From Lingula anatina (lineage: Eukaryota; Animalia; Brachiopoda), in the NCBI GenBank assembly GCA_051362555.1, contig CM120640.1, positions 7,378,001 through 7,442,000 on the forward strand: 64,000 bases of DNA. Direction: 5' to 3'. A program made the position numbers and the translations under genes. The notes beneath the pieces are model-generated. The model was given only the letters and a program-made list of their open reading frames with translations, made no database searches and had not been told where the DNA came from. Positions 8,601 through 44,200 of this stretch are shown here, piece by piece; the stretch's first letter is position 1; each line of letters starts with the position of its first letter.

Positions 8601-11600
8601 CTATACCACAACTACAACTTACATACACTGTCCTGACATTCTTCCTTGCTTTACCATTACTTTGATGCATTGCTATGTCATCTTTGCTGTATATGAAATT
8701 TTATCAATCATTACCACAACATATATCTAAATTTGCTAACCTGCTGTAAAACAATAACATCTGTAACCTGTAATCTTTTTTCTTCAATTGATCTGTTCGC
8801 CCAAAAATTCAAATTTTGATTATTATCACTGAACTTTATCCTTAAACATAACAACATTTCCCTTATGATACAGTACACTTAAGGTAGAAAATGTAGACTG
8901 GTTAAAACATTGCTCTTATGCTCTGCTATAGATTAGCTTTATTTTATTTGCTATGCTGTGTTGTTCACTTAGAACATTTTACTAACAGCAAACAACTCAG
9001 CTTTGAAATGTGTATTTTTGTGCTTTATAAGCACATTTCTTCGTTCATCAATATATAGCATTTTTCACTACTAACAGTTTCACATATATACCACTGTTGT
9101 GTTACATGTACCAGCTTGTAAAATTCTCAGTTTGCAGTCTCATGTTGCTTATGATTTGTATGTCTGAGAGCAAAATATTGTATGGTATGTAGGTTTCAGT
9201 AAGTATATATAAAAATATATATGAATGTATCACAGTGTGGATGGATGGAAGTACAGTCTTCGAAGTATGTCATGACAATTTCCTTTCACTGAAATTATAG
9301 AAATGATCCAAATTGTGTAATCAGAGTTTTTGTGAAAGTGAATAAGTACACATTAGTTGCAATGGGAAGAAATGGTGTAAGTGCAAAATTGGTGTGTTAG
9401 ACTGGGTTTCCATAGATTTAGATCGATCCATCTGGATTGATCTAACTCCCTGGGGGTTCACGCTAAATTGCTGTCAGCTGAACGCGCCTGAAAGTTAATT
9501 ATCCCCTTACAGCTTTTAGTAGGTGGGACAGACATTTAAGCCGGTTAATCTGACAACAACCTAGTGAGACTCCCCACAGGGATACATCGATCTAAAATCT
9601 GTGGGAATATAGTCTTAAATATGAAAATGTGGTAGTTGTGCTTGTGTTCAGTGCTTAGTTCTTTTCATAGCTTGTGGCTGTTTTTTAACTGCTTATTAGG
9701 TTGTTGTGTGCGGCAACCAGTACTATGCTAGATGTCTTATTTACATTCTAGTTTGCAACCAGCGAAACCGTGACCACTTCTTTCCTCGACCTCTTTCCAC
9801 AGTGGAGAAAGCGGAAAGTTTTCGTAGTATTAGCCTGGGCTTTAATTGGCCTTGTTGGAGGGATGCCTATGTGCACTAGGGTAGGTGTGTGACCCCTGTA
9901 TGGGCCCTAAATAAGGAGACACTGACACTGTTTTAATTCTGCACCATTTCATATTTTTCCCCCATCAGTTTGCCATCAGCGAGACTTGCATCACTGGAAT
10001 TACGGATCTGTTCCCTCAATGGCGCAGGCGGAAGTGGGCGGTGGTGTTAGGCTTTGCCATATTTGGCACTATAGTCGGCCTGCCCATGACTACCAAGGTA
10101 GGTGACACGACGTGCGTGCGTGACTATGCTTGGCGGATGTCACATGTTAGTTTGCGACCAGGCTGCTAACTTTGCAGTGAATTGCACCAGGGGTGATATG
10201 CTGCATGGTACTATATATTCATATATAAATATATATATTTATTGATGTACACTTGGTAGGGTCAGGTAGCAGATAATTTGTATGCAGATATGTATATAAG
10301 CACAACATTATTATTATCATATAATGCACTCTAACTATAACAGGAGAAAAATATTTATTGGTTTACTTGTGTGTTTTTTCTGAAACTCTATATTTAGGAG
10401 TTACTGATAAACAATTATAATATGCACCTATAATTTCCTACTTTTCAAGCCGGTATACATAGTCATGACAAGACCCAACCTGTATCATGCTTGATCATGT
10501 TGACAATCATAGGCCCACAATCAAATTTGCCATCATTTGCAGTGGCCTTCAAGTAAACCAAGATTTGACCAAAATTTCAATCAACCTATCATATTAGTAT
10601 AACATATATCTTGTATCCACTGTTAATAACACAAGTAGACATAAGTTTAATTGTAACACTATGCAATTTGGACTTAATTGGTAGCTGCTCTTAGCATTTC
10701 ACATCAATTAAGAATGCATTATAGCTATTTAACAATAATGCAGTAGTATTGTGAACAACTGATACAGCTAATGGGACATTAATATAATCCTGGTCATTCT
10801 TGGGGAGATAAAAAAAATCATCAGTTATTTATTCAAAAATCTATGGTAGCGAATGGTATTTTGGGGTCATAGGGAGGGTTGAAGTACATAGTTATGTGGC
10901 AGAAGGAGGCTGATTTATAACTGGATTAGATGCTGATTCTGTAATAAATAGGACCTAATAGCCATACATTATGTCCTCAATGATGGTAAGTGTATTACAG
11001 TATCCCCAGGTTGTTGACCCTAACTGTGCACTGAAGAGCTTGTTTATTCTGTGGATTTTGACTCTTGTACTCTGTTCTCTGTTACACAATCAGATTTGGA
11101 TACTTAGTTTGTGTTGACTACCGTCCAAATTCTATAGAAGTGGTATTAGATTGCTTAGGTTCCTCTTTCTGTGTCCAAGGGGGATGCATGTTTATTTTAC
11201 AAGGTGGACCTGATAGATGCTAATATTTGTAGAAATGCACTGCTTAATGTGTACTGCAGAACTTTGTTGAATTAAGGACATAGGTCTGCATTGGGTTATT
11301 GTAAATTTAATTTTCACAATCCTTCTATACTGTATCAAAATACGTAACAGATGTTCTGTCTTAATGTCATGTAACTGGTAGAAGAACATGCCTGACATGC
11401 CAGCTGCTATAAGCTGCACGTGTGACTTGGAAGCCTGAAAGGTCATGAGCATGAGGCAATTTCTCAATATTTTCACCTAGCTCTTTACATTCTTCTATGC
11501 CCCCCCTCCCCCCCAAACCAGCAGTCTCAACTATTCTCTGTCTCTATCCACTGTCATTAATATGTCCTTACCCCGTGGCCAGTTCACAAAATAACTTAAA

Positions 11601-19060: not shown

Positions 19061-22000
19061 CTACACACGCACGCTATTTGCATCGGCAATTGTGTCTGTT
19101 TCCAAGTCATTTTCAAACACCATGTTATATTCCAGTGAGCTTGGCAGACTGCTCTGTTCGAGTTCGTAATTCCAGAATGAACGCAACGGGGACGTGGACA
19201 CGGCACGCGAGGTGCGACACCAGTCACCGTTGACGTACAGAGAATCAATGTAATGATTTTCCCTTGGGCGAGTTGTTTCTCCTGGACGCGGAGAATGTCT
19301 TAGTTGTGGTCTGGCATACGTTTCTCTGCCAGTAGTGTGAGTTCCTAAGGAGCAAAAAATGGAGAATTTAGCTTGTATTTGCCTTTCTTCGATAAAAAGA
19401 AAATATTCATATTTATGTTAAAAAACAACAAAATAAAGGGCCGGATCTAATAAAACCTGTAGTAGAAGTTTTTGTTACCAAGAAAATTACTGATGGTTTT
19501 TTTTTCCTCTCTCACAAACCGTGGACTTGACATTTCCTACCACCATTAAAAAATCGACACAAATTAAAAATTAGCTGCCCGTTAAACAGCAGCTCACAAA
19601 ACAAAAAATCGGTATCGTCTACTGTCTACTGTTTGCAGAGTCGCCCCTTGTAAACCATCTTATTAATTTTGTCTAGTCTCGAAGTTTAGTGTTATTTGTT
19701 GAATTCACTGAAGTATAATTTTCGCTTAGTCATTGAAGCGGGTAACAAAGAAAAATAATTTTGAAAATAAATTTCAACTGATAAAACATTGCTATAATAG
19801 GAAGGTCCATGTTAATATCTTCACTACCTGGGGGGTTCCTTTCTTTTCTTTGACAGCAGAAATTCTTAACGAGAACTGCTACCACAATTGTCAACACAAC
19901 GCTGAGGAGGACCAGAACGGCAAGAACAACTGGGTTAACTTTACTGAAGGCGTCTTCTTTCTCGGTCACTACAGCGTTGGTGGTCAAACATTGAGGGCAA
20001 TTCAAATCATCGTCCATCTCCGTGTCAGCTGTAGTCATGGCCAGACATTTCAGACAGTTAGGATCACCTCGTGCACACTCGGACTCATTGCCTGCAGGGG
20101 ACCTCTGGTTGTGAAGTCTGATATCCCGCTCACGCAGCTCCAGACCTCTTGATTCAGTATAGAGCCCGACCTGGTTCGTAAAAGAAGAAACACTTATATT
20201 TGGTTAATATTTCAAGATGTTTCTTATTTTCATTAGTCTTTTGCACATAATGTGCATTCAAAATGCATCCTTTTGTTTCAGTTGACAATATATGTTTTAT
20301 AAAAGATAAAGAATTATTAGACGTCAAGTTCACTAAATCAACGTCCCAATACGTTACAAAGCAATTCATATTAGAGGTACAAATACTGTTCTAAACAGCC
20401 AGGTTACTCACCCCAACATATTTGGGATGAGTTTCAACTTTTTGAATATTCAGAATTTCGAAGCCTGCACTGCCATCTCCATTGTCATCAAAGGGTATAA
20501 CCACTTCTCTAAAGTCGTTCCTCAGTCTAACCTTCTTTATCTCATCATACAGTGTTGAGACTCCTGCCGTAGAACGCATGAGAGGACAAAGCTCTGTGGT
20601 GCCGCACACTTCTTCTAAAGCTGCCTCAATGCCGTTTGCCGCAGCGTACACAGCAAGAATGGTGTATACTGTCCAAGGGTCCTCAGAATTCAAAACCAAT
20701 GACTGCCCGCACGGAGGACGCGACTTAGCCAAGGAATTCGGTAAATAACAGTTAAAGTTTTCTTCCCAGTACGTTCTAAACCAGGGATTCCTGTGGTTGG
20801 TTCCAGGTTTTAAAGAGCGTAGGTATCTGTCAAATTCTGGAAAATCCCTGGTCTTTTTCTCCAGTCTGAATGTTAAGTGTCCTTCGGCCATATTTTCCAA
20901 GCCCTTAATAACATTAACACTATCGCTCCACCCTTCACTGCCTACGAGAATATAGCGTCCCCCTAAGCGTCTTCCATTCATTTGCTTGAGTACCTCTCGT
21001 GCTAAAAAGTCATCCAACATTAAGACCACGACATTTGCGGCAGGGTAGTTCAGAAGGTTCTGTACGATCTCGGGAACTATTTGCTCAGATTCTGCCTTAC
21101 TGAACGGCATCTCTTGCGATAAAGCAATACATATCTTAGAAACGTTAGCGTACTTTTTAAAGGCTCTGATGCCTGCCCGAGCATAGTGGTTTTCTGTGTT
21201 GATAGTAGCAACATATTCCCACCCTAAAGACCTCAGCATCATAACCATAGCGCGCGCTTGCCCATCAATGGCCGGCACGGTTCGAAGGAAGTAAGGGTAC
21301 GCCTCGCGGTTACTGAGGTCTGTGCTTACAGACCCGTACGATATCAAAGGGATTTTTAAAGCCGTCAGGATGTCAGCCACTGTCATAGACACAGAGCTGG
21401 AGAACGCCCCAACTACTGCTGCCACCAATTTGCTGTCTATCTTCTCGCCTGATTTGGGATCTTTCAGTATAAGGTTGCCGGAGAAAAAATTGAGCAGAAG
21501 TTGACTTGCACGTAGGGCATTGTAACAGTCATCCAGCACAATGGCTCCGAAGTTTGGTTTGTTCCCACTTCTACTGCTAGGATATCTGCTCTGATTTAGA
21601 GTATCCATGGCATAAAGAAAGGCCTCCACCAGGGGGACAGAGCCAGTCAGACTCCTAAAGGCGCCACAATCAGTCGGTCTTTTGGCTTCATGCAAAGAAA
21701 ATATTCCAAGTATCAAGACCTTACCCGGGACATACGCAAAAGGTATTTCTTCTATGACATTGGTTTTACATGTTGAGCAACCTTGTCTGCAAGATGACGC
21801 ATGGTGGTCGTCCAGGGCAAGAGATATCTTTAAGCCACTTTGGGAGTGACTTCCAATTCTTTGAAATGTACCACTCGTAAACTGGTTGACAAAATAATGA
21901 TTTGAGTCACTACTGTTCAGATCCCCGTTAGCATCAAAAGTACCCCGTGTTTTATTTGGGAATAGTCGAGGAAATCTGTTATACTCCAAAGTTACATTAG

Positions 22001-25000
22001 CCAGATAAGGGACAAGCGAAGAAGAATTCATGTTTCTCAGACTTTGACAGAACCCGGGCACATTGTTGCAGCGGACATTTTGGGCATTCTTGACAGCGGA
22101 CGCCAACGCTAGTACTGCCTCCATTGCTTTCTCAACGTAATGGGTTTGCACAAAACTGGACTCAATCTCGCTGTCTGGTACCTCCTCGCAAACTCGCCCA
22201 CTCACTCTTTGAAAACGAAGTCGCATTTTGGAAAGTAATTCTTTTGGAACCGTGGCATCCTTAAATAAACAATTATAGTATTCCATGAAATATTCGTCCA
22301 GCCAAAGTTTGTAGTGCATACAATCCGCTTCACAAGTTTCATTCCTGCTTCTTACACGTTTCATTAAACCCAACCAGTGGTTGCGGAAATCGGCAATCTC
22401 TGAAAAAGCAGGCGCCAAAGTGATGGTACCGTCACTTACAGCGCCCTTCAAATGCCAAAAGTGAGCGTTATTTACGTCAATAGAATCAGGAAAAATCCAC
22501 CGTAGCTGACTGGGATGAAGGTCGGTCGACAATTGTATATTCTCTGCCCATACCTTGAGCAACTGCACAGCAGCAGGTGCCTGACCAAAGTACACCACTC
22601 CTAAAATGCTGGACGCGTTGTTTCGGATTATCTTGGAGATTTTCCGTATTATGTTATACGAAGTGATGTCATTGGTAGGTGGAGAAACAGAAATTGTTTC
22701 AGACATTGCGATGCATATTCCAGAAGCTTTAGACAATTTGTGAAACTCTTCAATCCCTTCTGTGCCATAATTGTCATCAGTGTTGACAGTCGCCACGTAC
22801 GTCCAGTTCAACCTGCGTACTAGTGCCACGATAGCCTGCCAAAGATTCAGAAAAAGTACAGAAGGTATTAACGACACTTTCGTTCTTCTTCGACAATTAT
22901 GTCTAAATGTTTTCATCAATAAAACCTTTAATTTATCTTTGCAAAATATGACAGGACTGTGATGCCCATCATTATTTTGTACCGCAAAAGTAATGCCTTC
23001 CGATTAAGTGATGCAAAAACCTTTAGCATAACCTTTGGCATAATCCATTTTGTATTCATTTAGTATGCAGTCATGTGGATTGATGAGAAATAACGAGCGA
23101 CGCTTTAGCTCTGTTACAAAGATTAAAAAGTTAAAAGATTGCAAAAGATAAATACAACACAAAACAACTGTTATGCAGAACCCACTAATTATTCACCTGG
23201 ATTTGGTGCAAATCAGACGGCACGGTGCGAAAGTAGCTTGGGAACAAAGTTTTGTTAGAAAACTTGCTCACAGTAGTGGAAAATGCCACCTGTGGTATGT
23301 TTCTCCCTTTCAATGCATCCGACACCGCCTCAGCAGGCCCACTGCTAGCGGGACCTAAAATACCTGAATTTAGGAGAAAAATTATATTCATTATGATAAA
23401 TTTCTTAAGAATTAGTGGTTTATGGTGACGCCGTTGAAAAAAAATATGGACCCAAATTTCAATGTGAGAGCGAATTCTCTACATCTGGCATCCTTGTTTG
23501 CAGAAAAATCTCAAGATTGATTTTGTTGTAACGCAGCACCTTTGATGCTTGCTTTGTCCATTCTATGATATGTTTTTTGGTCGAAATGCCACATAAATAT
23601 TCATACAAGAATCTGTGTGGGCTTTGTAAAAATCTGTTTTTGGAAAAATTGTTAAAAACCAAGTGGAACTGACAATACTGGTTTATGTGATATTCGTATA
23701 AAATGGCTTACATGCTTTTCAGGCGTGCACATTACAAAAAAAAAGGGATGAAATACACGGTAACTAAATAAATAATGGCAACATTTATTCGAAATATATC
23801 ACAGTGCAAAAAAGTATTAGCAAAGGTTTGAAAGTGAAAGGATTTCAATCACAGCTTATACACCTGAAAAACATCAATGAACCGTTACAGAAACATACAA
23901 AGCAATGCAATGCCTAATAAAAAGTCCCAACTCTTATGTGGATCGATTTGACGTCATTTCATTTTTCAGTGTTATTTTGACTTTCTCCTGGGTCACGCTC
24001 TTTTTACCGCGCGTTTCCAGTAAATACATGTACGTATCCATTATCACGGCCAGGGCGCCCTCACTGGAGTGATGTTTGTTAACTGGTTTTGTCATGTGGC
24101 AGTAAACTCGACTTCAACCAAACAATGCAATTGCATTAAAAAACGCAAATCTGCAAGACTATTATATTTGTAATGTGTAGATTTCGCTTAGGTAGGGACC
24201 TGTAGTTTTTATTTAAAACATTTGATTTACGCCCTAAAGAAGCTCATCAGTATTTTACCAACAGGGTATTACAAAAAGGTTGTCATGTAGAGTTAAATAT
24301 TCAGTTTAAGTTAAAAGATGGTTCAGCTTGCCTATTTCTTGATTGCACATTGATTCCATCAAGAAAATTATTAATTTGATGCCACAAATGTACTTACCAA
24401 GAACTGGTGTGTGCTCGATATCCTGTCGGCAGGACGGATAGTAATTAGGATAGATATCGGGGAGACTTTGGAGCGCCGCCCGGGTTGCCAGAGCAGGATT
24501 CCCACACGTATCATACATCTTCATGTCTACATAAAAGATAAAAGATTAACGTATTTAAATATATTATTTCAATCTCTGCTTTTTTGTATCTTATCTGAGG
24601 TGTTTTTCAGTAATCTTTTGTTACATGTGGTCTCTTTACACAGGTTCAAAAAGAAATATCTATACCACGTAAAATCATTTGAATAAAGAATATACACTGA
24701 CAATGGTGGAGAAACTTCGTGGCATCCGATGGGCTTACTCACTTATATCATCTTACTTTTAGAAATATTTTTTGAGCTCACCAAGCTTTACTCCAGGGAT
24801 AAAGTCGTGTTCGTTGATAAGTGTTGTCATCCACTGAACGGCAACCATCGTCTGCACATCCATTGTGGAGATAACTGCACACTCGGTGTTATAGGCGCTG
24901 GGTTGATGGATGCTGAGTAGGGCCAAAAACGTTATAGTATTGTTTGTTCTGACTGCCTGAAAACACGATCCTCCATCCACACCTTGACTTTGTACAACAC

Positions 25001-25052
25001 CAACAGAAAACAGAGACAGGGCCGTGATCATAGACACCGTGGTCATGACCAT
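19061..25052 (-). CDS. Tandem double Venus-flytrap (mGluR/CaSR-type ligand-binding domain) single-pass membrane protein, paralog 1, ~1205 aa
   Basis: Exons in transcription order: 25052-24782, 24526-24398, 23363-23197, 22835-20412, 20170-19828, 19344-19061 (TAG); 3618 nt, in frame. Signal peptide, then VFT1 (YDTCG, GILGPASS, IPQVAFSTT, FPSYFRTVPSD, WTYV, DDNYG, GICIA) and VFT2 (PGKVLILGIFSLH, DDCYN, GAFSSSVS, IPLISYGS, YPYFLRTVP, GSEGW, NHRNPWFRTYWE). Single TM PVVLAVLVLLSVVLTIVVAVLV, then a ~105-aa tail. Confidence 0.88.
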
Positions 25053-27400
25053 CTAAAAGATATCAAATGTAGTTTTAACTTATATTTAGTGTTAAAAACA
25101 AGTGAAAAATGAACATAATGTTGTTTTTTTCTCTATTTTAATTTTTTTACAGCAGGCCTACGAGCGTTCTGCCTACTCCGAAGACATGGTATTTTTATCG
25201 AAACAGGTGCCTTGTGGCAAAGATCCAAAATCATATTTATTTTGTTTTGGATCCTAGATTGTAGTAATGCTTTACAGAATGCCAGCACTTCAGGACATCA
25301 ACTGTAATAAATACTTACATAAGATATTATCAAGTTTTAAATAAATTGGATTTTACAGCTACCGTGTTGTACATGATAATATTCTGTTTTGCTTCAAACT
25401 GGCTATAGATATTTAGATTTCTATAAATAATATTTGAAGCAAAGAAGAATTTTCGGACATCCCGGTCAAAATGATGCATTAAAAGTAAATGTATGATACA
25501 AAATAACAAACAATAAGCAGGAAAATGGAAATTGTCAGATATCAAGTTATTACTCAAATCAGAGTAAGAATCAGAACTTTTCACTTAAAATTTACCTACA
25601 TTGTAATAACAAAACTGAATAAAAACTTCTGAAACACTACGGTCTTTAGTCTTATTAAGTAATTGTTGCAATCTGCAATGATGAGGCAAAAAGGTAAAAA
25701 TTTTCAGAAAAAAATTGTCCCTACAGACCCAATTTCCAACCTGTTGTGCTTTAGTACAAAATATGACAACAGTAAGTTTTGCGGAAAATATTGCGCTTCC
25801 CTCGATATTCTGCTTAAAGAACGCCACCTTTGGAAATTCTTATCAGGAACATTATCCAACCTAATTGGCTTGTATTTTGATCCTGCCATCGTCCCGCCAG
25901 GTTTGAAACAATGCCATTCACACTAACGTTTTTGCTTATTCACTTTCAAGGAAAGTTTAAGACAAAATGTATATAAAATTTTTGACTTATATCACTAATA
26001 ACACTATTATGTAAAAAAAAGTGACATTATCCGACCACAGTTTCTGTTGGGATATATTTGACCGTGGTTCATTTGATTATTAACGAGGCAGAGTTTAACG
26101 TGCAGCGTTATGCTATTCTGGCTGTAACAGAAGCAGTCATGGACAAAATTACAAAATTCGTTAATACATGTATGTCCAAGGGGCAGTTGAGCGCATCAAA
26201 TATGGTGTTTGCTGTCCCCCTTTTCGTGATAACTTGATATGTTTTCCCCAAGAATTTATTAGTAAATTGCTCGCAATCTACTGATAAGTTCTCAAAAAAA
26301 GACACACAAGTGGTATATCGGTATATCGTTGTTGGGCAGTATGTGTATTCGAGGAGTTCGAAAGAAATGCACAGTTGGCCAGAAAAAGACCCACTCTTAA
26401 TCAAAATTTCATCTTCCTCATATGCACACTTCCTCTTTTTACCCATTGATTGCACCAGCCGTTTCACTGTGATCATACTCACTTTACACTTCATCACTAG
26501 ATGCTCCCGAACCCTTCACTTTACGGTTTGTAAAAGTGTGGCTGAAACGTGGAAAGTAAATCCATCTGAAATTTCCCACCTGGTGGGCTGTACATGTGTC
26601 TTTACATCTGGGGTCCACGACGTCAAGGCCAGCATAAGCAACAGGTATGTCGTTATTTCTTACGGGTCGTTGGACACTTTACTTCGAAAGGAGAGGTCAA
26701 ATACACAAACCTTACATTGAATTTAACATGGCTATGTGGAATTTCCATTTCTTAAAATAGAATCAGGAAGAAGAGTTTTATTTAGCAAGACATCTTGTCA
26801 TTGGAACAGTACAACAATAAATTACAAGGAAGCATTGGTGTTGACAAAGGAAAGTAATAATACAGATGATAAGCATAAGAATAAGAAGAGGACAAAGCAT
26901 CAAAGCGGAACTTACAGTGATTCTCACAGATGCGACGTAATGGTTTCCCTGCAGGACTCACAAGTTTACAAGATTTCTGTTCTCTCCTACATTCTGAGTC
27001 CTAAATATCTAAGTGTACTAGTGTGAAAGCAGAGGGCTTTTGCCATTACTTCTTATATTTTTCTGAAGTCATTATTAATGGCCATAAACAGACAAAATGG
27101 AATTCATCCTTTAGAAATTTTACGTCACACAATTTACAGTTTTTTTTCTTTGGTACCTTGCAATGTTGTTTAGTTACTTATGTAATAACGTGCAGTGTAA
27201 AGGTAAAAGATTAGATCGTAAATAATATCTGCCCCATGGTCGACTATTTTACATAAATATTCTCCCTCTTTAAATCATGACTAAAAATGTCAAATGAAGA
27301 CACATTTATTACATCTCTGTAAAAAGACATGACGCATTCATGTATGTCTTTTGATATTAATTTAAAAGGCCCACATTTAAAGTAACCCTCCAAAAAACGA

Positions 27401-27401
<1 letters not shown>

Positions 27402-27433
<32 letters not shown>
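27402..27433. repeat. (AAT)n microsatellite
   Basis: Directly visible. Confidence 0.9.
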
Positions 27434-27436
<3 letters not shown>

Positions 27437-28562
27437 GTTCCGAAGACTACAGTTAAAACAAAAACATGGGCAGCCAGTGTAACTCTTTCAATATGAGGGG
27501 TTATAAATAAATTAATATATAATATAATATAAATATATTATATTGTATATATTATAATATAAATATATAAAAATGAATATGAATGAATATTTGTCAAATC
27601 AAACAAAATGGAACTGGATATATTTCTAATATCCCTGATATGTTACTTTTGCGAGTGGTTTCATTCTGATCAGATCATATTGGGCCGAATTCTTTTTTCA
27701 AAATGCACCAATCGTTAAATATTTCTCAATTTAGACTCATTTCCATAGACCCCATCGCTCTGCGAAGATCGATCCAATCTTGCAGGAATTGTTTGAATTT
27801 AACTCAATGACAAGCCTCTTCAAGGCATTGTGTACAATACAGAAGCTGTTGATTGTACGAGTACACTGGAAACATTGAGGAAACGTGTTATTCAGTTGAC
27901 TGCACTCAGCACGAGTCCCCGCAAAGTTCGATCAATCTACGTAGTCCGATGTTGTCAATGGAATGAGGTCATATCAATGGCTTTTAACAACTCACTGCCA
28001 AAAATTTTAAAGTCCACATCACATAATAAATTCACATTCATGCACATGCTCATGAAAATATTTCACAGGTTTATTAGTTGTCACTAACGCAGTTTCCAGA
28101 TTTATAATTAGCGTAGTGCATATAGGGTGACTCTGACTGTTAAAAAAGATGCATGTAATTGTAAAATTTATTCAGTATAACAGCAAAATACTCTATTTAT
28201 TCTTCATGTAGTGACCATACCCCTGCAGTGTACATTCCCATGTTGTGTCCGTACACATGTAGTGATGATGCCAGGGCTCCGTATCTCGAAAGGTTCGCTA
28301 TGTTGCGCACGTGTGTTAGTGTCTCGATTCCATAACCGATTCTATTTCGAGATACGGGGCCATGAAATCGAGACACTTGCGTACGTGCAACTTTTTTAAC
28401 AAAGCTGCAGGTTGCCCATTAATAACAAAGAATTTGAAAAAGTAAAAATTTGTTTTCTTAAAACATCCACCTTTAGTACTGGTTGATACATGTACAGTAG
28501 TGACCATGCCGCATTTTTTATGTACATGAAATTCGTCATAAAATATTATTTGAAATTAATAA

Positions 28563-31500
28563 CTAGACAAATACATTCCGCAAGGAGCTCTCTCCGTCGG
28601 AATCGTTTTCAAAGCTAATGTTATATGTGCCTTGATCCTCTGGTTCCTGATCATGTTTATGTACATTAAGATAACTAGCACTATTCACGATGGGCGAAGT
28701 GGACACAGAGAGGGAAATTTGTCCGTTACTACCCACAGTGGGTAGTATGTCTCGACCGCTGTCCAAGGTGGACGAATTGCCGCGGCCACTGTCTAAGGTA
28801 GACGGAATGTCTCGGTCACTGTCTTGAGGGGATCTCTGATCACATCTAGAGCATTGTGACGATGGGTGACGTAACACCGATGGAACTGTCTCTCTTGATT
28901 CAGGAAGCACCGTGTATATTCGCCGATCTTCCTCTTCCGGGGTCTGCGGCAGAGGACGATCTTTATTGTAGCCATTTTGTTGATGCTTTTGAGCTGAAAT
29001 AACAGTTTAATTCAGTAAAAGTATTTTTCTTTATGATGTTTATATTACAAGCATGTTACTTGCTCATTACAATGGACCTCAGGTTAGACATTCAATATCT
29101 GTCTACCAAAATGAAGCCGAGAATTATCCTTTTAATCTTGCAGCGGTGCTTTAATTAATATAAACTATATTATACTGATTTTATATTGGCTGTAAAATAT
29201 ATTATACCGCACAATATAAGAGACGATTTTATCTAGCAGAAAAGTTCGGTATTTTTAAAAGTTATATTAGCTTTTGTAAATTTCACACGCATGAAAAATT
29301 ACCATTTGTTAAAATCGGTTGTGTAGAAAATGTAAAAAAAAGTCGACTTTCCTTGCCCTAGAATTCCAGTCATTGTTTACAGTCTTTACAATGTACCGAG
29401 CTTATACAGAGCGAACAAATAGTTCAGAGTCATTTATGTAGTTGAAATAGATTTCTAACCCCGAAACTGCGTCAATTCACCTACCTTGTTGATGTTTTTT
29501 CCACATATGCCGGAAGATGAATCCCACTGCACCAATAAATAATATTAGGGCGACACCAAGTACAATTAACCCTACAGCTTTGGCGTCGACATCTTGCTTC
29601 GAGTGTCCTGAATCACCTGGTTCAACGTTGGTAGAAATATCTGGACACTCCAAGCAGCGGCTGCACGAGGACTCGCCACCCTGCGCAGGCTCTCCGTCTG
29701 GCAAAATTATTTTATCTCTGTCAAGCACCAGTAGGTCTTGATATGTTCCTATCTGAAAACAAGAAATAAAAATACCCATGATTAGTATTATTATTAACAT
29801 AATCTGTTGAAATACTGGAAGAGTATTATATTATATAATGTTCATAAAAGATGGATTGCATTTCCTTTTCCACCCCCTTTTTTAAAATTATTATAAAAAT
29901 ACACATCATGTAATTATCATGTAGGCTATTAAGTTGCCGTTATGTTGCAAACATGCATGTAATTTGCGAGCTCAAATTTATTTGGAAAAGGAGTAGTTGT
30001 ATTTCAATTACCAACATATTCATATCCTTCGGGAAATAATTAGAAAATATTCATTTTAAAGCCCCCCCCCTCCCCCGGTTCAAATTTTGTTTTTGTCATG
30101 TACCTTTTTATATTCCAAGTTTTGGGGAGTCACAGGATCTCTCTGAATATTGTAAATAGAAAATCCAGCATTTCCATTCCCATCATCGTTGAATGGCCTT
30201 ACAATATTACCATTTGCATCAAGCAACTCTGTCTTCTGAATGTTCTGCACAAGCGTTTCAACCTTGTCCAGTTTTTTAAGTTCCACCAGGCAGGCTGTGT
30301 CTGATCGGCTGTTACAGTGGGTCCTCATCGTTTGCCTAAACCCTCTAATTGTGGCGTTCACAGCAAGCACTGTGTACGCGGCCCAGGGGTCGGGTTCGAA
30401 ACTTCTCCCAGGATCATTGTAGTTCATTGAAGGCCGGCACGGCACTCCATATTTATGGTCAAAGGTACCTTCTATATCACAGTGAAAATGGTCTTGCCAG
30501 TATAAATTAAACCAAAAATTGCGGTGTGAAAGCGACGGTCTTTTATTTATGAAATATCGTTCGAAATGATAATCACGTTGCGGATAGATCCCAACAGTAA
30601 TGTGTCCAACAGCGACTTCTCCGACTCCTTTTATGACTTTTGAACTTCTCCCCCATGCCTCGCTTCCAATGAAAATAAATCCGAGAGGCCGCGGGAGATT
30701 TTTGTTGCGCTCCTCGATAGTGAGAAGAACATTTTTTGCATGAATGTCATCGGCTATGAGTATGACTACCCTGGCTTTTGACGCGTAAGGAAGAATGTCA
30801 TTGATGGCAGTATGAATACTTTGCAGCTTTGCATCTGCATTTCCAAATTCATGAGACAACTCGTTACTACGGGCAATACAAATTCCATTCTTGTCAGCGT
30901 GTTTTTTGAATAGCTCATACCCATTTCGACCGTACGCATTCTTTGAGTTAAGCGTTATGACGTAGTTCCAACCAAACTGTTTCAGTAACGCCACCATGGC
31001 TTCGGCCTGTTGGTCTAGATTTGACACTGTTCTCAAAAAGAATGGAAACCTGTATCTGTCATCGAGTATGGTGCTGGCCGAACCGTACGAAATCAACGGA
31101 ATCCGCAACGGAGTGAGAAAGTCTGCTATGCTGATGGTTACCGAACTTGAGAACGCACCAATGACAGCAATGGCTTTAGCAGCATCTATCGCGATTCCTG
31201 ACACTGGATCGGTCAGTTTTAGATCCCCACTAAGAAAATTTAACAGTGTCTTGGTAGCTACTAATGGGTTGTAACAATCGTCAAATACAATAGCCCCAAA
31301 ATTAGAGCCGGACGCGTTGTTGGCTTCCAAAGCAAACATGAATGCTTCGACCAGCTGCGCAGAACCTGTGAGACTGCGGTAGTCGCCACATTCAAAAGGT
31401 TTCTTTCCCTGATCGTGGACAGAGAACAATCCGACAATTAACAAGTCCCCAGGGATGTAGATGAAGGGGACATCAGAAACTTTCTTGCACCTCTGGCAAT

Positions 31501-34500
31501 CTCTTTTGCAAGAAGGTACAGGAAGATTAACTCCAGACACGAGCGATCCGTAGTTATTGTCCATCACAATACTGTCTTTGTCGAGACTAAGTCCGTTTAA
31601 ACCATAGTTTCCCACAGATTTGAAAGAACCATCATCTTTGAAATTGTAAATATTAAACATGGTTGTTAATCCATTAAGTACATTGAAATCTCCAGTCCCA
31701 CTGAACTCAAACCTGATTCTGCTTTGCCTAAGTTCTCGTGGGGCAGCAAAACCAAGAGTGGCATATTCGACAATGACTTTCGGAATTTCTCTCAGTATCT
31801 CTCTTGCAGAGAGCGTGCCAGAAGGGGTTTGGAAGACGCGCCAATTTTTCAGCGCTACGGCGTACGCGTACAGAGCATGCAATGCCTGCACGAGATACGG
31901 CGACTGATGCAAAGTCTTCTGTGCTATCTCGTTCTCAGGTACAGAGCCACAAAGTCTTGCATTTATATCAGGCACCAAGGATGACGGCATATTTGGAAAT
32001 TTACATGCAAACATCTTCATGAAACATTCCTGCAACCACCGTGTGTGCACGTTCTCGGGATAAGCGGACACTTTGCTTATATTTCGGAGCAAAGGTCTCC
32101 AGTGATCTTCCAGAAATGATCCAATAGCGATGTGTGCCGGTGCGATGCTCAGTATACCGACAGCTGTACTTGCTTGATCGGCGAAAAGGTGAGATGCCCC
32201 TCCGACAGCGTCTGGCATAACCCAATATATGTTCTTCAGTCCGCGTCTGTGCTGTTCTTTTATTAACCCCTTGGCTATTGGTGATGGGCCAAAGTACACG
32301 ACGCCAAGAGGACCATCTGTATGTCGACTTTCCAAAACCAATTTGTCAAATATATCTCGCAAAACCAACGGGTCGTTGTTGTTGTCTGCTATAACTTCGC
32401 TGAGTCCAATGCATATTCCGTCTGCCTTTGCAAGCCGCCTAAACTCTTTCATTCCCTCGATTCCATAATTGTCATCGCTGCTGACAGTTACTATGTACTT
32501 CCATCCTAACTCACGAACGATAGCAAACATGACCTACGACGAAAAAAAAAATTAGACAGACACGTTTAAGTGTTGAAAATAAATTTAAGGACGGTAAGAA
32601 GTTCATTATCAATATGAAAATATCATTATAAAAATACAATACAAACGAACATAATTTTAACATATTTGTTGTGAATAATATGCATTATGAAAAAAGTTAT
32701 CGATATCTGATACATGGAAGCTTCACTGACTGGACACCTTAATGAATAAGTATGTCAAACATTTGTTTAATGGTTGGGATATCCCTTTGGGCTTATGGAA
32801 TCTAACCCAGGCGGAAAAATCCCTTATTAACATAAAAACTTTGACTGATATTGTTAGTAACTTCCGTGAAATTAGTGGAAAGAATTATTTATTTTGATAA
32901 ATGGAAATTCGAGCTGGCTCTCAAACTAATAAATAACACGTGAATTGTGCCCTTTCTCAATTGCCAATTCTGGCCGCATCTTATGACTTACTGATAACCT
33001 CTTATTGCATGTGATATAAAGTTAGATTACGTATGGTAGTTTTGAGATAATAGCCCACACACATATATGAGCATAAAATGTTGATTTGCATAACTTTTTG
33101 TCTCTATGTTTATATATGATATAACATTAATTTACGCGAACTTATAAAAGAATAATTCGAAAAGGATTACCTTGCTCTGTTCCTTATCAGAATGAACAGT
33201 CCTAAAGAAGTCCGGATATTTGTTCTTGTCACTGAGCGTTTCAGCCGTGGTAGAGTACGCTATCTGCGGTATGTGCCTACCCTCCAGCACGCCCGACACG
33301 GCGGCAGCAGAACTACTGCGAGTAGGTCCCAGAACACCTGGCAAGTATTATTAAATAAAACTTATCATTATCAGTTACTGAACTTTAATCACAAGTCCAT
33401 TTTATACTCTATCTGTTGGCTAGACCCGTGTAATAATTGCTGTTGTAAAATTCAGCGAAAGGGGAAGGCTATCTTTCAAAACAGGAACCCTTCCCCCACC
33501 ATTATAATTTTTTTGTTTTTTTTTCTGTTTGTGGCACAAAGGGATTGATGAAGGTGCACGTTATATTCTACATTATTTCAGTCATTTGTTTTAATCAATG
33601 TTTCCGTTTCTTTCACTAGCCCTTGTTATTCTTTATTCTCATGACATTGTAAAGTCTACGAAAAATTTTGGATTTTAGAAACTAAATAATAATAATAATA
33701 ATAATTATTATAATAATATTGCCACTGTACACTTCTTTGAATCTAAGTAAGTCAATGGAAAACGGGATAAAAGTAAATGGGCAAGTCTTTTCTTTTTTCA
33801 AAATAAAGCGATTGTTGTGGTCGCTTACCATTCTATGGCTGCTCTACTTGACGTTCAAAAAAAAAGTAAATAAACACATAATTACAGGTGATAACTCAAG
33901 GAAGTATGATTTCTAATGCCGAAAGGTGAAAGAATCAGATTCATCGACTTGCAACGACATATATCTTCTGAATACAAAAATGACCAGTTTTATTGAAAAG
34001 GGGGGTCGTTGTGGAGTCGCAGGTCTCTGGCCAGCGATTTGTTTTTATGAAAATGTGAACATTTTCACCGCGAAACCTACACGTACTTTGTTTATTCACA
34101 CAGCCTAGATCAGATTGATTCAGAGCAAACGCCCCCCAACCACCACCGTCTCCTACCTGAGTTGAATTCTTCAACAAAAAAGCATCAAAAATGTCTGACA
34201 ATTTATTTTTGAGGTGAAGTGAAGTGAAGCATTTCTTACCAAAAAATTGCTTTTACGTTGTTAATGCGAGAACTTACCAATGAAAGCATCACTGTTATTG
34301 AAGGGAGTGCAATCGGTGTATTCCCTCAAGTAAAAGCTGGGCGTTAGTGTGAGGGTACCTTGGACAGCCAGGGAAGGGGTGCCGCAAGTATCCAACATAC
34401 TTAGTCCTGAAGATAAAAAAACTGTCGATTAATATTTTGAGTGGATGTGGTTCAAGCTCAATAGCCCCACAAGTCATAACTTGGAGAGAAAGGAGTGGTT

Positions 34501-34939
34501 TTTATTATTCGGATTAGACAATATATATACCAGTAGTACACTTTGGAGTTAGTCACATATAGATTCTTATCAAACAGATTCATCATGATACTTGTATCTA
34601 AAATACATGCCGTTACACAAGTGCGTGGTAAATTTCTAATTTATGACTCGGTTCATGTGATGAAGAATTAAACAAACCTAATGTAACTCCAGAAGTGAAA
34701 TTATTTGAATTTATGAGGTTAACCGCCCATCTTAAGACTTCAAGCTCCTGTACGACGAAGGGGTCCAAGGCGTGGTCACAGCCCCTGTTTCCCAGGCTGG
34801 CAGGATGGTGCACCTCTCCCAGGGCCACGATCACAGCCTTCCCCTCATCAAAGGCGGGCTGGGGAGTGCACATTTTGCTAAGACCGACCACACTGGCCGC
34901 GAGGACCGTGACCATCGTCAGGAAAACAAGTTTATTCAT
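28563..34939 (-). CDS. Tandem double Venus-flytrap single-pass membrane protein, paralog 2, ~1228 aa
   Basis: Exons: 34939-34678, 34406-34278, 33337-33171, 32533-30104, 29752-29485, 28993-28563 (TAG); 3687 nt, in frame. Intron positions and phases match paralog 1 (129-nt and 167-nt exons are the same length). Signal peptide MNKLVFLTMVTVLAASVVG, two VFT motif sets, TM AVGLIVLGVALILFIGAVGFIF, ~150-aa tail. Confidence 0.88.
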
Positions 34940-38234: not shown

Positions 38235-41200
38235 CTACATCTCTCCTCCTAGTGTAAGTACATCAAAGCAGATCTGGCAAACACGGACTGGCTTGGGCTG
38301 GTTATATTTGATGATAGGGATATCCTTATCTGAACACTTATTGCACAATAAACGACCACAGTGACGACTGAAATAGTTGAAAAGAAAAATAACAGTTAGT
38401 TATATTCATGATTACTGAGATCATTATGTCCATGCTGAGATCTTACGAGGCATTTTAATAATACCTAACAAAAATATGTTTTAAAAGTTTAAAGTTCTGT
38501 TAACTTCTCATTATATATAAAATTGTACACATAGAACTGATACATAATACAGAATTAAATTTGGATACAAACCAATGATGTTTTCTGGTTTTAATTCCAA
38601 ATTTAGTTGCACATTCCTCGCAGTTTTCTCCATCTGTCCAGGGCGGCTCCTTGGCTAGCATATCTGCTTGCAGAATGGACATTATTACTTATCAAATTGC
38701 ACATATGTATCAAACTACATAAAGAAAGCCATTATAAATACTCCTCAAACCATCAACTAAATTTTCACTTTCTTACTTCTTCTAATATTCGCAATTTCAA
38801 AAAAAAAAAAATTATAATAATAAATAAATAAATAAAATTAAATCACCTTTATGTCTCATTCCAAGATATTTTCTTCTAGTCTTTCTACTTCAGAACAAGT
38901 CTGGCCTAAATTATTCAAATATCCTTTCCTTTCTTTTTCTTTGAGCCCGAATTTAAATTATGAAACAGAACTTGAATAATTTAACAAAGCACATTTATAA
39001 TTACCTAACAGCTTGAATAGTAACTGTTTGGTAGCTACAGGTGCATTGAATATAGACATCCCTTGTCTGTTCACATTGCCCATCATAGCACCAGCACGGA
39101 CAATTGCACGACATAAGTGTCCATTGCCATTTAAGTACGCCAGCAAAAGAACTGAAACAAAAAAGATGTTGTACTGAAAATCGCCATCCTTACCTCATGT
39201 CTTTAAGACAGAGAAATGCCAATTCTCAAAATGCTAGAGACAGTTGCTACATAAATTGAAAATCCAAATTTACTGCTATTAAATTGATTTCTTGGAATTA
39301 ATTATGATAATTAAAAATGACAATCAACTTAAGGCTATATTATTTAATTTATTTATGAACATATACCGTCAAAAAAATAAAGGGAACAAAATATATTGAG
39401 AATGCAAATAAATTGTTCTAATGCTATACCATAAAAAATTGAACTTGCACTACAACAAGCTCAAAAAGAACTGTTGTCAACATTACAATTTTAATTCTTT
39501 TTTTATATGCCATAAACATATACATGTAACATGGACAAAACATGAAAGTTGCATACCTGTGTTTCCCTCAGCATCAGGTTTATCTATAGGATATTCTGGC
39601 ATGCATTCTAAAAAGAACTCAAAAATGGCCGCAGCGTTCTCCCTTCCATACTGACCCAGTACATGCATTGGCGTCTGTCCCCTGGATTAATAATATGAAA
39701 TAAATTGATATCATGTATAAAATTCTGCTCAATATTGGTTCATAAATACCAAAATTTAAAATTAACCAAGAACAATGTTAAATGAATGTAACTTTTATAC
39801 AGTTCTTGGGATAATGTAAAATACAACCAATCAAACAAAATGAAGTCTTACTTCATGTTGATGGCTTCAGCATTAATCCTCGACTCAGTAAGCAGCACTC
39901 GGCACACATTGAGATTGCCATGCTGGACTGCTACATGGAGGGCTGAAATAGTAAATAATTTGAAAACACAGTAATGCTCAACTGAAATGTCTTTAGAACA
40001 TTCAAACGTTCACACTACATTTCAAGCAATTTCAAGGCTGTACTTTGCTGAAATCCTGTCTGAGTGCAAAGATGGAGGAAATTGTGGTTATATATAGAGA
40101 CAAACTTAGTTTATAAAGATAGTGCAAACAAAATTTCAGACTCAAATCTAGTTTAGAAGAGGCCTGACAGCTGCTTCAATGTCACCTTATATCCAATAAA
40201 ATAAGATTGAACAGTACGACCAGCAAGTGTCTCATGTTATCTCCTTTGCCATAGCTGCCTGTATAAACTTAGCCAATTCATATTTCCACAGGTAATGTCA
40301 GGCATGCGCAGTTAACCCATTTCCCCTGTCATGTGTGCATGCCTACGTACTTCTTGTAGTGAAAAAAGCCACGACTGCTTGACCAGAAACAGCAGTGCAC
40401 ATATCTAAACCAGAATGCAACATGCATAACATGCACAACATAGTTGGCACATGTGTGTCTTTATTGGTGGAAAGATGAATGACACTGCCTGTGGGTTGAA
40501 AAAAAAATGGTACAATTCATCATCAGCTGTTGTTATCAGTGAAAATTCCATCCAGGATTTCCTCACCATTATTCATGCCTGCATCCAGAGCGTCACAGTC
40601 CACCCCATTCTCTAGGAGCACACTACAAATACTGCTGGTCTGGTCATTCTCTGCTGCCAGGTGTAAAGCCGTTTGCTTGCTTGGGGTCAATTCATTCACA
40701 TTAGCACCAGCTAAGATCTGGAAATTAGTTTCAATTCAGGTGATTCTCAACATCCCTTTACCACACTTTACATCTTAGTCTTACATACCTAGGCCATATG
40801 AATGTAAGCATCCTCAATTAATTGCCAAAGTAACTGTAAAAATATTTTTAAAATTTTTGACCGATTTCGTAAGATATTCAGATAAACCCATCATCAATAC
40901 CAAGCAGCATACTAGAACACTGTCTTGATCTTTATACAATTTTTGCCATTTTTTACAAGTGAAATTTGGATGCACATGAAGCAGATATTCTGGAAAAAGC
41001 ACTCACTAGATTTCTGACTATAATTTCAGAGCTCGCCATGACAGCCAGCTGTAGAGGAGTGAACTTGTGTGAGTCCTGCACTCTGGAGTTCACATCAGCA
41101 TGGACACTGATCAGGAACAGGACACTCTCTATGTCTGACTTTTGGATGGCCACATGCAGAAAGTTTCTGCCTCGGTTATCAAGCTGCAAGAGGTAATGAA

Positions 41201-44200
41201 TGAAAATGTATCTTAGGAAGTCAAACATGTTAAACAGGTATATTTAACTTAATCAAAGCACCTGCAAGCTGCACCTGGCATCCAAATTATTCGTAACAAT
41301 TCCTAGCAGATACCATAATTGAAATCAATTTGGAATTGATCTACAAATCTCAAAAATATTTTTTGGAAAAGTTTTTGGTATTATTTTATCTATCATTTCT
41401 GTTGAAAAATTACAATAAATTGTTTTCTTGTTTCATTTAATTGGCAAAAGAAGAGTTGCCACTCCCAGAATAATATTTCAAACATTCTGAAGCATTAAGC
41501 AAAAAGATGAGAGATTTTGAGAATGCAGGCCAAAAAGAAAATAACAACAGTGTACCTGCTCAGCTGCCCTAGGTTCACGGTCTAAAATAGCCTGTGCAGC
41601 TTTGTTATTCTTGGTTGTCATGGCAGCAGCAAATGGTGTCTGCCCTTGTCTGTCCCTTGCGGCCAGGTTCAGTCCTGGGTGAGACAACATCAGAGAGATG
41701 ATCACAGTGTGCTGGTTGTTGATTGCCACATGGATTGGAGATTTTCCTTCTGCATCCTAAAAAAAGCATTTAAATATTAAAACTAAACCACAAAATGTCT
41801 TCTAGATAGAAACTGTCTAAAGTACTGAGACAAGCATGCTCAATGTGACTTTTCGACAAGGCAGCTTCATTTGTAGAAACAAAAACCCTATATTTTCAAG
41901 CTGATACAAGTATTTTAGTTGAAATTCAATTTGTTATCAACATGTGCATGTATCAACAAGATACAGTCACATTCTGTCTGAATAAATCCACAGATTATCT
42001 ATGTAGCTGTTAATGTAACAACACTTGACTCTCACCTGAGCATTGATGACAGCATTGTGCTCAATGAGGCACTGGACCACCATTTCCTGACCCCAGGTGG
42101 CTGCTAGGTGGAGAGGGGTCTGCCCATCTCTACAACAATAATAGTGGAATAATACTGTCAGTGGACATCATTTCACTAGTCATACATTTAACCTACTTAC
42201 TGGAAACTCAACTATATTTTCAGTAAGCTCATTCTACCTTTCCAGCTGCTGATTCAGAAAACAGCAGAGGTATGCTGATAATACACTTGTGTTTCTAGTG
42301 ATCTCTGAGACTCAGGGTGTCTATTATGTACTAAACAACAAAGCTTTTGATGTGTGTTGTAAGGGATCATTAGTTGTAATCAAGAACACAACAGCAGTAA
42401 AAAATGAAATTGAGCTGTTTATCAAATAAAAAATATGAAGATTCCTAATAAACCTAAACTAAAACAAAAAAATACATCTCTGGACTTGTGGAATGTTCAA
42501 AACGCAAACAAAACAAAACTTAAAAAATTATAAAAAATTATCTGATCATATCGATTTTTAATCTTGATATCCTTTTCTGTGTAACAGAACTTAAAAATCA
42601 ATGTTAACTACAGATGTTTTTACAATTTAATGGGTAGAAAAGGTTGTCCATTACCTTGCTTCCTCTCCCCCTTCTCCATTGGGTCCTGGTCTTCTGGGAC
42701 TGTTCACATCACACATGCTACAAATACAATGATAGTCATAGCATGAGCTAGTTCTGGTTTAGGATGTTCATTCCAAAGGACATCAGTATCAAAGCTGCAG
42801 GCTTTAAGTATAATAAGCAGTATTAACTTTTAACAAAATTTCTAGATCAAGTCAAGTGAGACCTGAAACAGGAAAAAAATTAGTTCAATACAAAATGTAT
42901 AACAGCTCTTCATTTTTCCCCACATTTAAAAAAACTTTCCCAATACCTTCTTATGAGGAAGCAAGCCACAGCTTCATTGTTCTCATCAATAGCTCTGTGC
43001 AGCAGAGTTTGTTCACATCCATCAGGACCTGGGCCCCACATGTTAGTGTCACAGCCATGGCGCACCTGAGTATAGGGAGTGACAGCTCATAATATGATAA
43101 TATTATAATATAACGATAATACAAAGGGAGACCAGGACACATAGCTGATATGTGGTATTAGCCAAGTTACAGACTGTCCTCTGTAATATCCCCCCAAAAA
43201 AATTTGTTTTACCCTGCATTTAAAAATGTGGAAAGGGAGAGAACAACATACCCTGTATTCATTTTTTAGTGTTAAAACAGATTTCTAAACTAACACATAT
43301 TTCCCTACCAAAATAGAAGCCACATCCTCCTGGCCTGTCTCCAGAGCTTGCCACAGTGGACAGTTGCCTTCTGCATCCATTACATTCATGTCAACACCGC
43401 GAGAACACAGTGCATCTACAACCACTGGCAGGTGGCGCTTAATGGCAAGCTGTAAGGGAGACTCGTTGTCTGCAGTTCTAAATAAAAAAATAAATAAAAC
43501 AAAATAATACATATTCAAAAGTAAATAAATATAAAAATAATAACACAACTAATCTCTCTTAAAAGAGAAAACAGAACATCTTATTTACAGCAGCTGTACA
43601 AAATAAACTTAATTTCACACACAAGAAAAATTTTCAGAAAGTATAAAAATGCAAATGCATTGCATGATCCTAATATACATAAATACACATATATATTATC
43701 TGAGGCAGAATTTTTCTAGCTTTTTCTATTTAAAAACTGTAGGAAAAAATTGGTTATTATTCAAGCTAATTCAGCATCAAAACTAACACCTAAGCAAGAT
43801 TTTTTCTGAAACCTAGATGCAAAAATACTTCACCTGGCACTGATATCTGCTTTATTCTCTAAAAGGAAAAGACAACTAGGGACATCTTGATTCATGATCG
43901 CTTGGTGCAGGAGTGTCATATTTTCTTCATCCTTTTCGTTGATGTTTGCTCCCCCATTCAGCAGCTGTACTGCTATGTCATTAAAGCCGTTCCACAGGGA
44001 CAAACCTAATGCTGTGTGCCCTCTGGAATCCTTGATGTTGAAGTTTGGAATTATAGTTGTATTATCAGTGGAACGAGTGGCTTTCTCTGGAAAATGAAAT
44101 AAGACATAAGTGTAAGGCTTTGTTCACATGCAATGTCTATTTTCTAAATTCTATTTTCTATTCGCTGTTAGTCTTATGATCACTGTCTGTGCCCTGAATA

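Follow-up and report, generated by a model that had tools for sequence, protein, structure and literature searches.

Two tandem receptor genes in Lingula

We examined a stretch of 64,000 nucleotides from the brachiopod Lingula anatina (NCBI GenBank assembly GCA_051362555.1, contig CM120640.1, positions 7,378,001 to 7,442,000), hereafter the window, which carries two tandem genes for receptors with two Venus-flytrap (VFT) domains and a single transmembrane (TM) helix. Both genes lie on the minus strand, gene B at 34939-28563 and gene A at 25052-19061; position 34939 is the A of the gene B ATG and position 19061 the final base of the gene A stop codon (Table 1). Enumeration of splice sites with GT-AG introns gave open spliced models of 1228 amino acids (aa) for gene B and 1205 aa for gene A, with 36% identity between the two proteins. 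Each gene has six coding exons with common intron phases (1,1,0,0,1), and exons 2 and 3 measure 129 and 167 nt in both. Some other splice sites also keep the frame open, and the choice among them followed consensus, a match to a RefSeq protein (gene B) and reads for two of the joints (gene A). An earlier note on this DNA, made from the sequence alone, had given these coordinates and a shared six-exon structure, both of which are confirmed by the spliced models; its exon set for gene A holds for the six coding exons but overlooked an additional upstream exon that is probably non-coding.

There is scarcely any doubt about the architecture, which consists of two VFTs and one TM helix with no seven-transmembrane (7TM) or enzyme domain. 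The order in both proteins is signal peptide, VFT1, a three-cysteine (3-Cys) linker, VFT2, a second 3-Cys linker, a stalk, one TM helix and a tail, as the earlier note had described it. Pfam detected two ANF_receptor stretches in the large exon of each gene and in the full B orthologue (P0001, see below), as had been expected, and no match to NCD3G or 7tm_3 in the same queries; for P0001, Pfam also returned no kinase or cyclase domain. Hydropathy profiles of A and B each contain an N-terminal signal-like stretch and one strong TM segment past the second VFT (residues 1078-1096 in A, Kyte–Doolittle value (KD) 3.3; residues 1058-1076 in B, KD 3.0), with two weaker peaks (1.7-1.8) located within the VFTs of gene B. 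The tails, of 107 aa in A and 152 aa in B, had been described as low-complexity; they are indeed present, but with several tyrosines and a terminal valine they are more than low-complexity sequence.

Gene B is the orthologue of the L. anatina RefSeq model LOC106158345 (row P0001 of our census), having the same length and ends and differing at 22 of 1228 residues. Gene A is apparently absent from the public proteins searched (lengths 444-1414 aa), in which its large exon as query had no near-identical entry, while its paralogue B is annotated. Four RNA runs, chosen by species label (X1, X3, X4 and X7, the last from a diverged population), were mapped to gene A. The joint between coding exons 1 and 2 is spanned by seven X7 reads, and six more connect coding exon 1 to a 5' exon (25052|26483), which has stops in its frame, the last 12 codons ahead of the splice, and is probably a non-coding part of the 5' untranslated region (UTR). 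Two reads fit the joint from the TM exon (exon 5) to the stop-bearing exon (exon 6), and X1 and X3 contributed a few reads on the expected strand. Reads from the 3' UTR extend to about 18400-18050, where they abut a convergent plus-strand transcript downstream of SLC6-family exons.

These data bear on whether the pair could be an annotation artefact or a decaying, truncated G-protein-coupled receptor (GPCR), with transcripts that continue into 7TM exons or genes that are non-functional. Counting towards this possibility, and against gene A as a working receptor gene, are its absence from the protein collection searched, the low depth of X7 over its exons (up to about 6, and about 2-6 across most bins of exon 4), the absence of any X4 read on the gene and the absence of exons 2-3, 3-4 and 4-5 from the joints listed; the RNA check of the terminal exons that the earlier note had advised gave reads fitting the last joint. 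In addition, one family-like row, P0058 from Ptychodera, does look like a truncated GPCR model. Against an artefact, a profile built from the class C 7TM regions of 26 relatives detected no 7TM-like segment among 2878 six-frame segments of the 64-kb window (best E 0.69), and the convergent gene closes the 3' side of gene A. Moreover, reads connect its TM exon to the stop, synonymous change between the two genes has reached saturation (pS 0.76) alongside a conserved protein (dN 0.64), and 41 near-complete rows from four phyla have the same architecture. The artefact explanation is largely refuted and, in our judgement, extremely improbable; the earlier view of A and B as intact paralogues, and not a truncated pseudogene, is supported by this evidence together with the RefSeq match of gene B.

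Table 1. Exons of genes A and B, in positions of the window
Feature	Position	Strand	Support
Gene B exon 1: ATG, signal peptide, start of VFT1	34678..34939	-	model, RefSeq row P0001
Gene B exon 2 (129 nt): VFT1	34278..34406	-	model, P0001
Gene B exon 3 (167 nt): VFT1 with S/T ligand motif	33171..33337	-	model, P0001
Gene B exon 4 (2430 nt): remaining VFT1, 3-Cys linker, most of VFT2 (~31456-30104)	30104..32533	-	
Gene B exon 5: second 3-Cys linker, stalk, single TM helix (~29569-29513)	29485..29752	-	
Gene B exon 6: Ser/Pro-rich tail, four Tyr, C-terminal Val, stop	28563..28993	-	C-terminus as in P0001
Gene A upstream exon, probably 5' UTR	26483..26620 (upper end approximate, from binned read depth)	-	joint reads
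Gene A coding exon 1: ATG, signal peptide, start of VFT1	24782..25052	-	joint to exon 2, 7 X7 reads
Gene A exon 2 (129 nt)	24398..24526	-	model, reads
Gene A exon 3 (167 nt)	23197..23363	-	model; 51% identity to gene B exon 3
Gene A exon 4 (2424 nt): remaining VFT1, 3-Cys linker, most of VFT2 (~21731-20412)	20412..22835	-	
Gene A exon 5: Cys linker, stalk, single TM helix (~19930-19874)	19828..20170	-	2 reads to exon 6
Gene A exon 6: tail with five Tyr, C-terminal Val, stop	19061..19344	-	model, reads

Breadth and ancestry of the family

A HMMER search of 1.84 billion cluster representatives (best 150 of 3612 matches), combined with word searches, yielded 153 proteins, which together with the two window models form a census of 155 rows. 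Two VFTs followed by one TM helix were found in 57 rows, one VFT and one TM helix in 4, and multi-pass proteins in 26; the remaining 68 are unclassified, having no clear TM helix beyond the last VFT and being mostly fragments. Both VFTs are near-complete in 41 of the 57 two-VFT single-pass rows, including proteins of 1246 aa and 1137 aa on Logan contigs of 4.2 kb and 3.6 kb. No above-cut-off Pfam domain beyond ANF_receptor or Peripla_BP_6 was present in any of the 37 single-pass rows scanned, whose tails reach about 750 residues. The 3-Cys linker is kept in 53 of 55 family rows at each of its two positions; the tail and motif counts exclude P0058, which is probably a truncated GPCR, and P0001, which represents gene B itself. 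The distinct receptor architecture that the earlier note had proposed, and for which it had advised a search, is thus shared by many proteins.

Sources were looked up for 30 rows, with further ones named in other searches, and the single-pass rows span four lophotrochozoan phyla: brachiopods, molluscs, annelids and bryozoans. They come from bivalves (Sinanodonta, Saccostrea, Potamilus, Solemya, Dreissena), gastropods (Haliotis, Patella, Batillaria, Lymnaea, Nucella), the annelid Dimorphilus, the bryozoan Watersipora and a cuttlefish (P0178, outside the census). Lingula itself has at least four such genes, counted from protein matches, since P0040 and P0070/P0171 add to A and B. All database labels in the family are uncharacterised or hypothetical.

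The multi-pass relatives are mostly GPCRs of an unusual kind, with 19 of the 22 scanned combining 2-5 VFTs with 7tm_3 in the absence of NCD3G and 3 carrying NCD3G. Multi-VFT GPCRs were found in Tubulanus, Sinanodonta, Babylonia, Saccoglossus, Branchiostoma and Acanthaster, and a five-repeat row from Octopus (P0017) was classed by hydropathy only. Rows P0007, P0009, P0012, P0013, P0014, P0051 and P0103, from a nemertean, molluscs, a hemichordate, amphioxus and a starfish, are class C GPCRs of this multi-VFT (2-5) type without NCD3G. Across lophotrochozoans, the repeats of multi-VFT GPCRs are position-specific orthologues, and the proteins are uncharacterised or automatically named as similar to metabotropic glutamate receptors (mGluRs).

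For the trees, each VFT was treated as a separate unit; those from FastTree (181 units), IQ-TREE under LG+G4 (65 units) and a mixture model (42 units) agreed with one another. The VFT1s of the single-pass proteins form one group (93/89 under LG+G4, mixture 83/78), which has the first repeat of lophotrochozoan multi-VFT GPCRs as its sister (98/89; mixture 96/86). The VFT2s of the single-pass proteins form another (100/97; mixture 91/88), sister to the internal repeats 2-4 of the multi-VFT GPCRs (100/98; mixture 99/97). The VFTs of A and B therefore nest among the repeats of the multi-VFT class C clade, with which they also have the short Cys linker in common. The phylogeny that the earlier note had called for thus places the family beside multi-VFT class C GPCRs and not beside canonical rows, a sister group that the note had missed.

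Approximately unbiased (AU) tests rejected three other groupings: VFT2 as the terminal GPCR repeat (p-AU 0.0013), VFT2 with two canonical rows of VFT, cysteine-rich domain (CRD) and 7TM, as expected for a direct canonical origin (p-AU 0.0005), and VFT1 and VFT2 as internal duplicates of each other (p-AU 3e-12). Two points temper this ancestry, namely that the AU groups were named post hoc, after inspection of trees rooted on one or two canonical rows, and that the mixture model gives lower support to the monophyly of the single-pass VFTs. In both domains, A and B group as sisters (100/98 for VFT2, 98/88 for VFT1) and a grouping of A with mollusc rows apart from B was rejected (p-AU 0.017 and 0.004), indicating that the tandem pair arose after the split from molluscs.

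On these sequence comparisons, the family very probably originated from a multi-VFT class C GPCR. One lineage from an ancestral GPCR with about three VFTs would have lost the last VFT and the 7TM region, leaving a single helix at its end, by the time brachiopods, molluscs, annelids and bryozoans diverged; the other lineage would have multiplied the middle repeat to five. The direct sister group is represented by database models such as Tubulanus XP_074641006.1, Saccoglossus XP_002735016.2 and Branchiostoma XP_035696128.1, which share the repeat unit of a VFT and a short Cys linker, VFT1 corresponding to repeat 1 and VFT2 to the internal repeats. The single-pass family differs in the absence of the last VFT, of the 7TM region and, mostly, of a tryptophan preceding TM1 (present in 3 of 55 single-pass rows versus 17 of 22 GPCRs). 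The single helix may be what is left of TM1 or a newly acquired one; the 7TM profile matched only P0058 and P0127 at E < 0.01 among 61 single-pass rows, and the match in P0127 is to a different helix.

Ligand site, ectodomain and possible output

The closest solved structures by sequence are mGluRs (mGluR3, E 3e-51), and the best 60 matches are all mGluR or CaSR. An AF2 model of the B orthologue from a 62-row alignment has a predicted local distance difference test (pLDDT) score of 88.9 and a predicted template modelling (pTM) score of 0.77, which suggests a fixed arrangement of VFT1 and VFT2. Both fold searches matched VFT2 only, with mGluR2/3 as the hit (Z 44, rmsd 2.3 Å) and an alignment that runs through the Cys linker to mGluR3 residue 527, a cysteine that we take to be bridged to VFT lobe 2. 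Its partner cysteine in lobe 2 has a counterpart in 39 of 39 family VFT1s and 54 of 55 VFT2s. The 3-Cys linker is likely a shortened CRD that couples closure of the trap to the next module.

The backbone-binding ligand residues of mGluR1, presumably S165, T188, Y236 and D318, have a complete S/T/Y/(D,E) counterpart in VFT1 of both window proteins, as in 27 of 39 VFT1s across the family. The set is incomplete in VFT2 of A and B, where the ligand-site threonine is replaced by valine or alanine; a division of labour between the two domains is not universal, however, because 25 of 55 family VFT2s keep the full motif. An equivalent of Arg78, which with Lys409 serves the glutamate side chain in mGluRs, is absent from all four A and B domains (T and E in VFT1 of A and B, respectively, and L in both VFT2s). 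Class IV mGluRs with the same pattern of backbone residues and no arginine are read in PMC6307864 as binding another amino acid. We infer from the conserved residues that VFT1 would be a working amino-acid trap.

The paired VFTs could alternatively serve adhesion or recognition, binding a protein on another cell or in the matrix, much as mGluR VFTs bind ELFN proteins, with a tail that couples to tyrosine-kinase adaptors as in guidance receptors. A single-pass topology, tails with Tyr-x-x-Pro and hydrophobic C-termini, the apparently ordered two-domain ectodomain (by its pTM) and the many diverged paralogues would all suit such a role. Against adhesion, the buried S/T/Y/(D,E) residues are kept in VFT1s across phyla at about 25-35% overall identity, a conservation that would be difficult to account for if no small ligand were bound; we consider adhesion unlikely.

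Hydrophobic residues of helices B and C, which we take to be the mGluR dimer face, are better kept in VFT2 than in VFT1 (leucine at one position in 40 of 55 versus 12 of 39). A complex prediction for VFT2 of A with VFT2 of B scored 0.54 versus 0.01 for the best control, a value rated weak by the tool, which gave no interface; runs agreed in at least 92% of contacts, with a partner pLDDT of at least 82. Scores of 0.60 or less from this tool are wrong more often than right: 5 of 78 solved pairs attained the mark, as did all 4 mismatches that passed. The score may stem from likeness to solved mGluR dimers, homo- and heterodimer being indistinguishable. Of the AlphaFold predictions that the earlier note had advised, the one for the B orthologue has the scores given above and the one for the VFT2 pair of A and B is weak. 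The note's suggestion that A and B heterodimerise is not supported as it stood: as each other's closest relatives they form a lineage-specific pair and no ancient heterodimer pair, and an obligate A/B heterodimer appears quite unlikely. Nor is its picture of a covalently linked VFT dimer supported in that form, as VFT1 and VFT2 are different ancient repeats of a multi-VFT GPCR (the AU test above) and VFT1 mostly lacks the hydrophobic residues of the presumed dimer face.

Class C receptors work as VFT dimers, and the single-pass proteins could therefore be co-receptors or modulators that pair through their VFTs with a sister multi-VFT GPCR or an mGluR and either contribute ligand binding or dampen signalling through G proteins. 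Such pairing fits the direct sister relation of both VFTs to GPCR repeats, the dimer-type residues retained in VFT2 and the presence in Sinanodonta of both the single-pass form and a multi-VFT GPCR. It does not explain long tails with enriched tyrosine motifs, which a passive partner would not need; 57 single-pass versus 26 7TM rows fit a 1:1 subunit poorly, and the 30 rows with a source looked up included no Lingula GPCR of the multi-VFT type. We consider a co-receptor role unlikely, to about the same degree as adhesion.

Family tails range from 17 to 747 aa (median about 156 aa), some being shorter than 25 residues, and are Ser/Pro-rich and poorly alignable. A motif first noticed as Tyr-[Ile/Leu]-polar-Pro occurs 34 times in 55 family tails versus 2.4 in shuffled tails. 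It was picked after a few tails had been inspected; in 50 held-out tails, from 28 proteins that are interrelated, Y-[ILV]-polar-P occurs 31 times versus 2.2 when shuffled, and 1 instance was found in 23 GPCR tails. YxxP and Y[DEN][DE]P are also enriched. Tyrosine motifs of this kind serve as docking sites for the SH2 domains of Abl, Crk, Nck and PLCgamma. The five tail tyrosines of A include one YxxP, YID and YVN, and the four of B include YLN and YTVL but no YxxP.

These features lead us to a tentative reading of A and B as receptors for amino acids with a tyrosine-adaptor output. VFT1 would bind an amino acid and close, the 3-Cys linker, a segment that superposes on the beginning of the mGluR CRD, would relay this closure, a weakly predicted VFT2-VFT2 dimer would form, and the tail tyrosines would, going by their motifs only, provide an output through tyrosine kinases and adaptors. 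Of the possible outputs, adaptor signalling appears to have the most support in the family; for A and B the support is less direct.

Several observations weigh against this scheme. The strict Y[ILV]xP motif is absent from the tails of both A and B; the earlier suggestion of signalling through adaptors draws its indirect support from the family-wide enrichment. No enrichment of motifs resembling the immunoreceptor tyrosine-based inhibitory motif, or of YxN, YxxPhi or [ILV]Y-polar, was detected in the family tails. A C-terminal V, I or L (30 of 55 family tails, six of them in [KR]ISRV, and valine in both A and B) is not family-specific, because GPCR relatives have it as often (12 of 23). The post hoc choice of the motif, the interrelated held-out rows, the full ligand set in many VFT2s and the behaviour of the complex tool count in the same direction.

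Clearance or uptake of a ligand is a further alternative. The ectodomain of NPR-C (NPR3) is of the ANF_receptor type. In PMC9699598, NPR-C is a single-pass receptor with no catalytic domain and a 37-aa tail, which clears its ligand and engages Gi; a receptor of this kind in Lingula would capture and internalise its ligand or engage Gi through the tail. Enrichment of NxxF (30 versus 16 in shuffled tails) and F[DE]N (10 versus 1.7) would suit a receptor of this kind, as would the shortest family tails. Most tails are long, however, the VFTs are of the mGluR type, and no NPR chain is among the best 60 solved-structure matches, which makes such a role improbable. NPR-C also has one peptide-binding ectodomain of the guanylyl-cyclase type, versus two mGluR-type VFTs in A and B. 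The earlier note had omitted NPR-C, an enzyme-less VFT receptor, and the sister multi-VFT GPCRs from its list of known receptors.

Known receptors and neighbouring genes

With mGluRs and other class C GPCRs (mGlu1-8, CaSR, invertebrate class IV mGluR) the A/B family shares VFT sequence and fold, the S/T/Y/D residues and a 3-Cys linker that overlays the start of the CRD. It differs in having two VFTs per chain, one TM helix in place of seven, no full nine-cysteine domain, no Arg78 equivalent in A or B and, in the family, a tail with tyrosine motifs. Venus kinase receptors (VKRs) are described in PMC3703292 as invertebrate single-pass receptors with a class C-like VFT, activated by amino acids and with tyrosine phosphorylation as output. 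They have one VFT and a tyrosine kinase of their own, whereas A and B have two VFTs and neither P0001 nor 37 relatives contain a kinase. The receptor guanylyl cyclases NPR-A/B differ in their cyclase domain, which is likewise missing from P0001 and 37 single-pass relatives. Our trees contained no VKR or NPR sequence. By its domains, the family is neither a class C GPCR (it lacks 7TM and NCD3G) nor a VKR (it lacks a kinase) nor a receptor cyclase; its closest functional analogue may be a VKR without the kinase, or a receptor in the style of NPR-C assembled from mGluR-type traps.

Bacterial BvgS and EvgS reportedly also place two tandem VFTs before a single TM helix, with a histidine kinase attached. 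The VFTs of these proteins and of trypanosome receptor adenylate cyclases are not known to derive from mGluRs, so their resemblance to A and B would be convergent. According to PMC6027212, two tandem VFTs precede a single TM helix in the trypanosome cyclases, with a cyclase attached. A GPI-anchored amoebal VFT protein (PMC12965686) is unrelated.

The literature searched, whose scope did not extend to supplements (e.g. the architecture figures of PMC3971589) or subscription GPCR-repertoire papers, held no description of a double-VFT, single-pass, enzyme-less architecture. The two-VFT single-pass receptors therefore apparently represent an undescribed lophotrochozoan family. In animals, mGluR-type flytraps are otherwise known to act on a 7TM bundle, as in class C GPCRs, or on a kinase, as in VKRs. 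More tentatively still than for A and B themselves, we suggest that an ancient class C GPCR ectodomain may have been rewired from G-protein to phosphotyrosine-adaptor signalling, giving a large, lophotrochozoan-wide set of enzyme-less double-flytrap amino-acid receptors and a third readout for mGluR flytraps. If so, a major animal clade would possess an unrecognised receptor class for amino-acid or nutrient cues, missed by searches keyed on 7tm_3 or kinase domains and recording a transition from GPCR to single-pass receptor with a readable history. The soluble two-VFT ectodomains would make ligand screens easy, and any ligands would also be informative on the uncharacterised five-VFT GPCRs.

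Other genes in the window include an SLC6 (SNF) transporter on the plus strand, with exons at 3168-10166 and a transcript that runs to about 17950 and ends beside the 3' end of gene A; segments 9752-9889 and 9915-10166 encode similar peptides and could represent a duplicated exon. An amino-acid-type transporter adjoining putative amino-acid receptors may be due to chance. On the minus strand, a gene at 40500-49350 has Pfam matches to BTB and ankyrin repeats (Ank) and resembles Rabankyrin-5/ANKFY1. A two-exon gene at 61248-62440 (plus strand) encodes a secreted precursor with a signal peptide, dibasic sites, insulin-like cysteines (CC-x3-4-C-x6-C) and a C-terminal extension ending in CxC; neither exon has a Pfam match, and the product is possibly a divergent insulin-related peptide. 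Finally, Cys-rich, EGF-like exons of a minus-strand gene lie at 59214-59420 and 63153-63401 (weak EGF match).

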